Shown here piece by piece: positions 4,299 through 61,782 of a stretch of DNA of 64,000 nucleotides (its first letter is position 1; each line of letters begins with the position of its first letter). Origin of the DNA: a virus (Duplodnaviria; Caudoviricetes); IMG/VR virus record IMGVR_UViG_3300032318_000487, positions 15,390-79,389 of that record, one strand, 5' to 3'. Position numbers and translations under genes: made by a program. A model generated the notes under the pieces. It was not told where the DNA came from. It worked only from the letters and a program-made list of their open reading frames with translations, and did not search any database.

Positions 4299-4820
4299 TT
4301 AGAACCTAAAGTTTAGACCAATTGTTGTTGCATTACTATCTAGTCTTTCGTCATTGAACTGCCTTGTATAACGATACCTTGCATCTAGTTCAACATTACG
4401 TGAAAGTCCATAACGAACACCACCACCAACTGACCAGAGTGATGCAGGATCACCATTTCGACCTAGACCATTAAAACCATAGCCAACACCTACGAGAGCA
4501 TATGGAGTGAACGCACCAACTGGTACACCAACAATAGCATCAGCAGTTACAATCTGACCTTGATCAGAACCGAAACGATTAGATACATTTAGTTCACCAC
4601 GAAAATTACGATTGAACTCATAACCTACAGTACCACCAGCAATGGCATCTCGATTGTCGAAGTCACTGAAACTTACACCACCATTAACACCAACATAGAA
4701 ACCACTTACTGGTGTCTGAGTGAAAACAGGTGCAGGTGCAGCAGTGCGCCTAGGTAGATCAGCAGCATATGCTGACGTTGCAACTACGGTAGCGACAATA
4801 GCAGAGATAAAAGTCTTCAT
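4299..4820 (-). CDS. outer-membrane beta-barrel protein, Omp25/Omp31/RopB-like
   Basis: Signal peptide ending AYA, mature start ADLPRRTAAPAPVF, GFYVGVNGG, alternating beta strands, terminal Phe (GLNFRF). Confidence 0.88.
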   Translation of the reverse strand: MKTFISAIVATVVATSAYAADLPRRTAAPAPVFTQTPVSGFYVGVNGGVSFSDFDNRDAIAGGTVGYEFNRNFRGELNVSNRFGSDQGQIVTADAIVGVPVGAFTPYALVGVGYGFNGLGRNGDPASLWSVGGGVRYGLSRNVELDARYRYTRQFNDERLDSNATTIGLNFRF

Positions 4821-10836: not shown

Positions 10837-12221
10837 TAGTTTACCTTTAGTCTCTTGAACTTGTCTCGATTCATACTATTGGATTTATCCATAACTGGAT
10901 TATCTTGTCCGCTGTCAATGATGTCCATCTGAGCCGACTGTTCAACATCATACAACTTCATCTTTGACCTGTCAATACCCAAAACAAATCGCTTGTTAAC
11001 TGTTGGATCATTATAACGATTTTTCAATTGCTTAACCATGATCTGACCAAGTTCTTGAAGCTGTTCTGTGGAAATCAAAGCGAACATAAAGTCCGCAGTT
11101 GCAGGAAGACCGAAAGATTCCGATGTGTCTGTCAAATCAACATCGGAGTTTGAATAACCAGATCGTGTTGTCTGTGTCGCTGTCACTAAAGGTACTTCAT
11201 ACTCAACGGCAAGACCACGAAGTTCTTCAGCAATGCTCTTGATATATGTATACGAGTTTACACTGCCACCAGGCTTAACTCTTGATGACATACAGATATT
11301 AAGATAGTCAATGAAGATGATATCAGGCTTGAATGACTTCTTTAGATTCAATTCATTCAACAATGCTTTAAAGTGAATAGTGGAAGCACCAGCAGTTGGA
11401 TACTCTTTGATGATAAGTTTACCGTTTGTCTTAGCCTTTAGAGACAAAGCTTTCTTCTCATACATTGATTTAGGAAGTTGCATCAAGTCTTCAAATGTAA
11501 TGTTCATAAGATTAGCATCGATACGCTTTGCAACTTCTTCTTCAGCAAGTTCTAGAGTTATGTAAAGAACATTCTTGCCCATGTTAAGACATGATGATGC
11601 CATGTGACACATGAACAATGACTTACCAACACCTGTACCTGCAAGAGCAACATTCAATGTCTTCTTAGGCAAACCATCTTTAGTGATCTTATTGAAGAAT
11701 TCTAGATCAAACGGAATCTTCTCTTGAACACGATGATAATACTCATACCGATCATCATATGATTCAAGATAGTCATGACCAACATTAGGATCAAACGATA
11801 CTGCAAGTGCATCAGACAACAATTGTGGAATAGCTCCCTTTGTGAGAGAGCTATTCTTATTGTTCATAATCTCGATTGAATTCATGATGGCATGATAGAT
11901 TGCTTTTTCTTGACAGAACTTTTCTGTCGAATCAGTCAACCAATCAACATTAGTATCGACTTTATCTTCTTGTAGAACCTTGATTGTATCATTGATACTC
12001 TTAACTTGATCTTCCTTAAGACCTTTCAGATTATCAATCTCAATCAACAAAGCATCTACTGTTGGAAGATTGTTATACTTAAGTATGAACTCTTTGATTT
12101 CCTTGAAGATTGTCCGATCTTCTTCTACAGTGAAATAGTGATCATGTAGAAAGGGAAGAACTCTTCTTGTATAGACTTCATTCTTCAACAAGTTCTTCAG
12201 AATTGTCTTTTCGATCTGCAC
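10836..12221 (-). CDS. gp41: replicative DNA helicase (T4 gp41-like)
   Basis: LAGTGVGKS Walker A, IFIDYLNI, ATQTTRSG, SESFGLPATAD; start moved to GTG 12221 with GGAGG SD. Confidence 0.96.
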   Translation of the reverse strand: MQIEKTILKNLLKNEVYTRRVLPFLHDHYFTVEEDRTIFKEIKEFILKYNNLPTVDALLIEIDNLKGLKEDQVKSINDTIKVLQEDKVDTNVDWLTDSTEKFCQEKAIYHAIMNSIEIMNNKNSSLTKGAIPQLLSDALAVSFDPNVGHDYLESYDDRYEYYHRVQEKIPFDLEFFNKITKDGLPKKTLNVALAGTGVGKSLFMCHMASSCLNMGKNVLYITLELAEEEVAKRIDANLMNITFEDLMQLPKSMYEKKALSLKAKTNGKLIIKEYPTAGASTIHFKALLNELNLKKSFKPDIIFIDYLNICMSSRVKPGGSVNSYTYIKSIAEELRGLAVEYEVPLVTATQTTRSGYSNSDVDLTDTSESFGLPATADFMFALISTEQLQELGQIMVKQLKNRYNDPTVNKRFVLGIDRSKMKLYDVEQSAQMDIIDSGQDNPVMDKSNSMNRDKFKRLKVN

Positions 12222-31450: not shown

Positions 31451-31476
31451 AGAAAGGGAATTTTCATCCCCTTTCT
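31451..31476 (-). terminator. possible terminator hairpin after hsp20-DUF1127
   Basis: AGAAAGGG-N10-CCCTTTCT followed by TTCTAT on the minus strand. Confidence 0.5.
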
Positions 31477-31481
31477 GAGTG

Positions 31482-31652
31482 TTATTGTTTTATCTTTCTA
31501 GACGCTTCTTTAGTAACATGATATATCTCACCGCGAGTGATACCTAAATCTTTCAAGTCTTTGTTTGATAAGTTCTGAAGTTCTTTGGTAGCCCGCTTTC
31601 TATAACGAAATCTTTCGAAGCAATATGAAATTTCTTCAATTAAGATTGTCAT
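31482..31652 (-). CDS. DUF1127 (YjiS-like) small protein, 56 aa (not in ORF track)
   Basis: R.R.RKRATKELQNLSNKDLKDLGITRGEI matches the DUF1127 L..LS...L.D.G..R.I signature. Confidence 0.8.
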   Translation of the reverse strand: MTILIEEISYCFERFRYRKRATKELQNLSNKDLKDLGITRGEIYHVTKEASRKIKQ

Positions 31653-31655
31653 AGT

Positions 31656-32141
31656 TTACTTCTGGTATTTTTCCGTTAAGAATTGCTTTGTAGCATTTTC
31701 TTTTGAGCCTTCATTGATATTAATCTTACGTGCTTTCTTCTCTTCTGGAATGAAACGCTCAAGCCAAATCTTCAGCATACCATTAATAAGATCAGCGTTC
31801 TTTACTTCAATACTCTCGGATAGAGTAAAGTTTCTAGTAAACGCACGATCTGCAATACCCTTGAAGATGTAGTCTGTTGCGTCTTTTGATTCAAGATTAC
31901 CCTTGACAGAGAGAACACCATCGATAAGTTCGATCTCGATGTCTTGCTGACCAAAACCAGCGACAGCGATTTCAATCACATACTTGTTGTCGTCAACCTT
32001 ACGAATGTTATAAGGTGGATAAGTTGGAATCTTCGGAAGATATTCAGTTACTCCGTTAAGCTTCTTAATCATTTCATCGAAACCGATGGTTGAAGATGTA
32101 AGCTTTCCGAAGTCTCGGAATGAAGAGAATGGATCGTTCAT
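31656..32141 (-). CDS. hsp20: small heat-shock protein (Hsp20/IbpA-like)
   Basis: YPPYNI, YVIEIAVAGF, GIA.RAF.R.F, A.L.NGML.I.L. Confidence 0.95.
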   Translation of the reverse strand: MNDPFSSFRDFGKLTSSTIGFDEMIKKLNGVTEYLPKIPTYPPYNIRKVDDNKYVIEIAVAGFGQQDIEIELIDGVLSVKGNLESKDATDYIFKGIADRAFTRNFTLSESIEVKNADLINGMLKIWLERFIPEEKKARKININEGSKENATKQFLTEKYQK

Positions 32142-32205
32142 TTTGTTACTCCTATGTAGCGAGTTTCAATATACTTGTGGTCCCTATTAAGCTGACCACA
32201 AGTAT
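32142..32205 (-). promoter_or_regulatory. ROSE-like RNA thermometer in the hsp20 5' leader
   Basis: Upstream hairpin plus ACUC-G-CU/ACAU/AG-GAGU hairpin: UCGCU motif with bulged G opposite the AGGAG SD. Confidence 0.72.
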
Positions 32206-32234
32206 ATATTAGTTGATAAATCTGTCTTTGTCAA
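32206..32234 (-). promoter_or_regulatory. sigma70-type promoter of hsp20
   Basis: TTGACA-N17-TAATAT. Confidence 0.7.
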
Positions 32235-61747: not shown

Positions 61748-61782
61748 AAGATATGCGGTATCTTTTTCATACCGCATATCTT
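61748..61782. other. 14-bp perfect hairpin between gp19 and gp20
   Basis: AAGATATGCGGTAT-N7-ATACCGCATATCTT; U-tract only on the plus strand. Confidence 0.8.

Follow-up and report, generated by a model that had tools for sequence, protein, structure and literature searches.

A short ROSE-like leader, a candidate RNA thermometer, upstream of the small heat-shock gene of T4-like phages

ROSE-like RNA thermometers have been described for small heat-shock protein (sHSP) genes of alpha- and gamma-proteobacteria, and the thermometers described in phages belong to other classes (PMC11182007). A ROSE-like element is an sHSP leader that folds into 2-4 hairpins, the 3′ one of which holds the Shine-Dalgarno (SD) sequence imperfectly paired with a U(U/C)GCU motif, with a predicted bulged G (PMC3669281, PMC11182007). 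The Pseudomonas ibpA leader is a validated thermometer with only two hairpins, a stable hairpin I and an unpaired AUG (Krajewski, Nagel and Narberhaus 2013, PMC3669281). In phages, RNA thermometers are known from lambda cIII, SPbeta blyA (fourU) and a sigma-70 gene of gut Caudoviricetes (fourU) (PMC11182007, 2024). Like the leader proposed here, these are cis-acting 5′ structures that gate ribosome access on phage genes, but they rely on alternative folds (cIII) or fourU pairing and serve other target genes; a ROSE-like structure is not among them, nor is a chaperone gene among their targets. The first-pass annotation knew of no described phage ROSE, and our full-text literature searches agree, having turned up no report of a phage ROSE-like element.

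The DNA analyzed here (the window) is a 64,000-nt stretch of a 79-kb IMG/VR virus record with an estimated completeness of 47%. The phage is a T4-like myovirus, with genes for a tail sheath, portal, scaffold, major head protein, gp43-type polymerase, SbcC-like nuclease and helicase. On the minus strand, to which all coordinates around this locus refer, it encodes an IbpA-like small heat-shock protein of 161 amino acids (hsp20, 31656-32141; Pfam HSP20, 3.3e-16) that shares 46% identity with E. coli IbpA and starts at 32141-32139. The PAAR-like gene upstream ends at 32231, and the 89-nt intergenic leader lies directly 5′ of the hsp20 start codon, as a ROSE element of an sHSP gene should. A DUF1127/YjiS-like gene (56 amino acids, 31482-31652) begins 3 nt after hsp20, an order shared by every strain variant, and behind it lies a terminator-like hairpin with a T-run (31451-31476). 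Given the short gap, the constant order and the hairpin, the two genes look like one small operon. The best 120 protein homologues of the window sHSP are all metagenomic, and a blastn search of a phage collection with the hsp20 locus gave no match.

Just ahead of the start codon, the minus strand reads exactly as it was first quoted. RNAfold and the comparison of relatives pair an anti-SD, ACUCGCU (32158-32164), which contains the U(U/C)GCU motif, with the Shine-Dalgarno sequence AGGAGU (32148-32153), and RNAfold places an ACAU loop (32154-32157) between them. The resulting SD hairpin (32148-32164) consists of the pairs A32164-U32148, C32163-G32149, U32162-A32150, C32161-G32151, C32159-G32152 and U32158-A32153, so that UCGCU lies imperfectly paired opposite AGGA. 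G32160 is unpaired in both the minimum free energy (MFE) and the consensus folds, which gives the bulged G characteristic of ROSE elements. The AUG (32141-32139) follows 7 nt 3′ of GGAG, and a spacer of 4 nt separates the SD hairpin from the upstream hairpin 1. Both hairpins appear in the RNAfold MFE structure of 32130-32230 (-25.3 kcal/mol, z = -4.6), and none of 200 shuffles was as stable. The pattern CTCGCT-N3-8-AGGAG occurs once in the 64 kb, at the hsp20 leader, against a chance expectation of 0.07; at least one match arose in 6 of 100 shuffles, so we regard the motif in this single genome as suggestive. The weight of the case lies with its conservation in 78 of 78 related loci.

These relatives were obtained by scanning IMG/VR with the window sHSP, which returned 80 loci at 58-72% amino-acid identity, 78 of them with upstream sequence and 46 distinct leaders. 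Every one of the 78 has U-Y-G-C-(U/A), a loop of 4-6 nt, (A/U)GGAG and then AUG, so the survey of hsp20 leaders that had been suggested as a check finds the same plan throughout, and in several cultured phages as well. Of 47 leaders, 46 contain CUYGCU, and in the L065 type CUUGCA comes with a matching SD change (UUGCA with UGGAG). In an alignment-free parse, core pairs 1-5 form in all 47 leaders, the sixth in 44 and the seventh in 33. The Y base is C in 15 leaders and U in 32, either of which pairs with G, and the loop varies in sequence among the relatives as well as in length. Two compensatory swaps occur in the SD hairpin: the loop-closing U-A becomes A-U in the L065 group, and an A-U becomes U-A in L074. 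Covariation in this hairpin is sparse because the SD is itself constrained, and its support is therefore mostly conservation.

Hairpin 1 of the relatives is a perfect stem of 5-9 bp in 46 of 46 leaders, in 28 different sequences, and 7 of its 8 pairs change on both sides in the MAFFT alignment. In the same alignment, paired cells make up 94.9%; shuffling lowers this to 82.4%, with none of 500 shuffles reaching the observed value, and sliding the partners lowers it to 42-61%. RNAalifold, supplied with no structure, returned the same two helices and the bulge. Thus the ACUC(G)CU/AGGAGU hairpin with its bulged G opposite the SD, as first annotated, is borne out by the RNAfold MFE structure, by RNAalifold and by the core pairs in 47 of 47 leaders. 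At the level of sequence, we consider the comparative evidence for the leader decisive.

The upstream hairpin was originally given as GUGGUC/GACCAC. A hairpin is present there, but it is longer than quoted: a perfect 14-bp stem (32194-32207 with 32169-32182; hairpin 1, 32169-32207) closes an 11-nt loop that contains UAAU. In this the window is atypical. In the related phage leaders, hairpin 1 has a bulged G that never varies, together with a CC/GG clamp and a loop of the UAAU or GAAA type, and the window copy is without the bulged-G CC/GG core. Many relatives (e.g. L006, L008, L021, L022, L038, L052 and L062) carry a third hairpin, ~ 25-50 nt upstream of the first, whose stems covary (GUGAGG/CCUCAC is one of them) around a conserved loop ending in AUUGCGUA. 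Their leaders thus have three hairpins, and the third is absent from the window.

Transcription of the leader is predicted to start close to hairpin 1. A sigma-70-like promoter, TTGACA-17-TAATAT (32234-32206), scores 10/12; its -35 hexamer (32229-32234) overlaps the stop codon of the PAAR-like gene, and its -10 hexamer (32206-32211) predicts a start that falls within the 5′ arm of hairpin 1, near 32199 and ~ 35 nt upstream of the UCGCU motif. In six contigs of strain variants with an identical protein, the substitutions within 111 nt are confined to the promoter spacer, and the hexamers and the leader are unchanged. This pattern supports the promoter call, and with it a transcript that would begin upstream of the motif. 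The outer two pairs of hairpin 1 overlap the predicted -10 box, and an RNA started near 32199 would hold only ~ 6-8 of the inner pairs, whereas read-through from the PAAR-like gene would carry the full 14-bp stem. In relatives, TTGACA plus TATAAATA or TATATATA stands immediately 5′ of hairpin 1. We considered a T4 MotA box at UUGCUUAA and rejected it, because the variants CGCUAA, UGCUAA and UGCAUA lose the box and the start codon occupies the -10 position.

Overall, the phage leaders have a phage or sigma-70-like promoter or follow a tRNA gene. In several relatives (L045:1347-1421, L047:987-1061 and L048:1336-1411) the leader hairpin 1 begins just a few nt after the end of a tRNA-Met gene, and the L013 type (L013:1359-1427) has a borderline tRNA-like gene whose score, 28.9 bits, falls just short of the cut-off of 29 and in which ARAGORN finds no tRNA. 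There is no promoter between tRNA and leader in the tRNA-bearing relatives, so the 5′ end of their hsp20 mRNA may come from tRNA 3′ processing. Since the promoter is of the phage or sigma-70 type, temperature control, if any, would act on translation. The first-pass proposal that the chaperone is made only during heat stress goes beyond the evidence, as the promoter is not a heat-shock promoter and the leader may serve IbpA-type autoregulation besides, or in place of, thermosensing.

How close, then, is this leader to the known ROSE families? The window leader has all four ROSE-like sequence-level features, as judged by RNAfold, RNAalifold and the pair counts. The resemblance to Pseudomonas ibpA (ROSE_3) extends from the IbpA-type sHSP gene to an arrangement in which a short single-stranded spacer links a stable hairpin I to a 3′ SD hairpin, to the unpaired AUG, and to ACU-Y-G-CU imperfectly paired with AGGAG around a bulged G. 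Hairpin I of the phage relatives also has the bulged-G-plus-CC/GG core of the ROSE_3 consensus. However, the phage copy is on a virus and is preceded by a phage or sigma-70-like promoter or a tRNA gene rather than by a sigma-32 promoter, its SD hairpin is weaker, with an upper stem of just 2 bp, its spacer is A-rich and variable, and hairpin 1 of the window is the atypical 14-bp perfect stem. The leader of E. coli ibpA (ROSE_2, RF01832) has an identical SD-hairpin core, CUC-G-CU with AGGAG, and likewise a preceding hairpin with a bulged G, but it folds into three hairpins, and its lower stem is longer and extends in the direction of the AUG.

The Rfam models give a different answer from the structural definition. 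A cmscan with the ROSE models had been named as a test of the ROSE assignment, and no phage leader reaches a cut-off. The window leader has no match to any of them, even with 91 nt searched, and ROSE_2 and ROSE (RF00435) have no match at E ≤ 10 in the window and 17 relatives (the relatives scanned whole). An 86-nt scan of the relative L007 placed ROSE_3 (RF02523) first of 4227 families, at full length and in register, with 18.9 bits and E = 0.029, which is below the gathering cut-off of 43 bits. The positive controls scored 100.4 bits (E. coli ibpA on ROSE_2) and 69.2 bits (a Pseudomonas-type ibpA leader on ROSE_3), and both show an upstream hairpin with stem, bulged G and CC-type clamp, followed by CU-Y-G-CU facing AGGAG. 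The literature's sequence-level hallmarks of ROSE are nonetheless all present in the phage leader and conserved across relatives, in line with the ROSE-type identity first assigned. Because the phage leaders fit the definition but miss the Rfam cut-offs, we place them in a separate ROSE-like subfamily outside the three Rfam families.

So, does the leader sense temperature? We think it probable that it is a short two-hairpin ROSE-like element whose SD hairpin is shut in the cold and melts on warming, raising translation of the chaperone. By analogy with the validated thermometers, we infer that the helix blocks ribosomes and melts within the host temperature range. The hsp20 mRNA would begin at or within the stable 5′ hairpin, and ~ 4 nt further on the marginally stable ACUC-G-CU/AGGAGU hairpin would hide the ribosome-binding site. 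At low temperature the closed hairpin would hold down translation of the IbpA-like chaperone; warming would melt the short, bulge-weakened helix, free the SD and let translation rise.

By nearest-neighbour prediction, which is uncalibrated and a weak guide here, the SD hairpin is marginally stable: its free energy in the window is -7.2 kcal/mol at 10 °C but -3.5 at 37 °C, and the predicted median of the relatives is -2.1 at 37 °C and -6.5 at 10 °C. For E. coli ibpA the predicted stability of the SD hairpin is higher, which points to a cooler set-point for the phage element. Without its bulged G the hairpin is predicted in silico to be twice as stable (-7.3 instead of -3.5 kcal/mol). Non-canonical pairs have been seen in the ROSE helix by NMR. 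Among 29 genes of the window that have an SD, hsp20 ranks fourth from the bottom in predicted SD accessibility. Warming from 10 to 45 °C is predicted to raise this value modestly, from 0.085 to 0.19, against 0.06 to 0.35 for E. coli ibpA, although such full-leader predictions are noisy because the 5′ ends are arbitrary.

The strongest competing explanation is that the leader is mainly a feedback operator, to which the phage sHSP would bind, repressing translation, until it is drawn away by aggregates, so that the RNA would follow proteostasis in the infected cell and not temperature; this could coexist with thermosensing. There is precedent, as IbpA of E. coli, Cedecea and Vibrio binds the 5′ UTR of its own ibpA mRNA and represses its own translation, which requires Arg93 and Tyr34, and IbpB is without Arg93 (PMC10474464). 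The architecture of the phage leader is the same as that of ibpA leaders, and the Arg93 equivalent (GIA-D/E/K/A-R; Arg99 in the window sHSP) is kept in 12 of 12 aligned phage sHSPs. Tyr34 is kept in the window sHSP and its near relatives, but the sHSP of HTVC008M has Phe at that position. The leader may therefore sense free chaperone or aggregation besides, or instead of, temperature. Conserved residues do not amount to RNA binding, however, and Arg93, which belongs to the alpha-crystallin domain, may owe its conservation to something else. We judge a mainly autoregulatory role possible, if on the unlikely side.

A more speculative proposal, which we consider rather doubtful, combines the two inputs. 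The chaperone would bind its own leader through the Arg93 and Tyr34 equivalents, output would track both temperature and misfolded load, and the leader and gene would form a portable module across SAR11, OM43 and Prochlorococcus hosts. We know of no ROSE elements in SAR11, OM43 or Prochlorococcus.

It is also conceivable, but distinctly unlikely, that the structure is real and constitutive, with hairpin 1 shielding the mRNA 5′ end and the SD hairpin setting a low, fixed rate of translation without a switch. Nearest-neighbour predictions change just gradually with temperature, the hosts are aquatic and may rarely reach melting temperatures, and the 5′ hairpin has been suggested to stabilize ibpA mRNA (Krajewski et al., PMC3669281). 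But what the phages keep is the exact bulged-G UYGCU geometry of validated thermometers, not just any SD-occluding helix. The Y base also tracks the length of the lower stem, which is short in 13 of 15 leaders with C and long in 31 of 32 with U. This association hints, from sequence comparison, at selection for a narrow stability range. The compensation is just partial (predicted Tm 73 with C at Y and 63.5 with U), and an independent-pairs test was underpowered, with one usable pair on a poorly resolved sHSP tree with 5 starred branches.

Least probable by far is that the 14-bp palindrome, which is perfect and overlaps the -10 box and predicted start, is a DNA operator for a repressor or the terminator of the PAAR-like gene, with the UCGCU/SD match incidental: the palindrome lies downstream of the promoter, UYGCU/SD pairing is kept in 78 of 78 loci, and the stem sequence of the relatives varies freely while its pairing is kept, as expected of an RNA hairpin and not of a protein-binding site. 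The window shows no excess of the half-site, with 6 matches where 4.05 are expected, and because that sequence is not repeated elsewhere there is no sign of a DNA operator; nor does a U-tract follow the hairpin-1 stem, as a terminator would have.

Returning to the favored reading of a ROSE-like thermometer, the leader extends beyond the phages in which it was recognized. A covariance model built from the phage leaders (R1) recognizes just one genuine copy, whether the window or the full record is scanned. The only further R1 matches there, at window 11532-11551 (9.5 bits) and G000 4599-4623 (13.2 bits), were considered as second copies and taken as chance, because they lie inside coding sequence and are without an SD. 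Among cultured phages outside the training set, R1 matches C48C1 (29.6 bits), Methylophilales phage Melnitz (24.8 bits) and Prochlorococcus phage P-SSM4 (17.7 bits); the match in Pelagibacter phage HTVC008M is weak (13.5 bits, E = 0.055). R1 misses HTVC103P and cyanophage S-TIM5, both of which show the leader plan on inspection. In S-TIM5 (L090:340-392), CCAC-G-CU faces AGGUGG, a compensating variant in which the bulged G is kept and a U-A pair becomes A-U. Four cultured phages (C48C1, Melnitz, P-SSM4 and, at a low score, HTVC008M) thus have the leader, and three of them have named hosts in their records, which makes the proposed temperature response directly testable.

A search of genome contigs for a donor led to just two loci, the first being an ibpA of Thermodesulfobacteriota whose SD is preceded by UCGCU. 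The other, also outside the training set, is a 132-kb contig binned as a Bacteroidetes MAG (L083, CAIWHI010000271.1), which scores 30 bits with R1. On this contig are TTGACA plus TATAAATA, a leader with the two hairpins and an hsp20 of the phage type, and binning has probably put a phage genome into a bacterial MAG here. The match of R1 to the E. coli ibpB leader (L082:4896-4990, minus strand) is weak (10 bits, E = 3.6); this leader has a hairpin with stem, bulged G and CC/GG, as in hairpin 1 of the phages.

Should the phage leader indeed respond to temperature, abundant aquatic T4-like phages would adjust their own chaperone supply post-transcriptionally, by temperature and perhaps by proteostasis, with a bearing on infection outcome in warming water. 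It would also represent a new and very short subfamily of natural thermometers, one that every Rfam ROSE model misses at the cut-off.

Two further observations arose in the course of the analysis. A record labeled 'UNVERIFIED: Pseudomonas phage Y7' (OQ572409.1; L099:340-406) has a full-score ROSE_3 match (69.2 bits) before an ibpA-like gene; as an unannotated, unverified entry it may be Pseudomonas chromosomal DNA, not phage. In the window, a second perfect 14-bp inverted repeat, with a 7-nt loop, lies at 61748-61782 between the portal gene and the next gene, where it may act as a terminator or an RNA-stabilizing hairpin.
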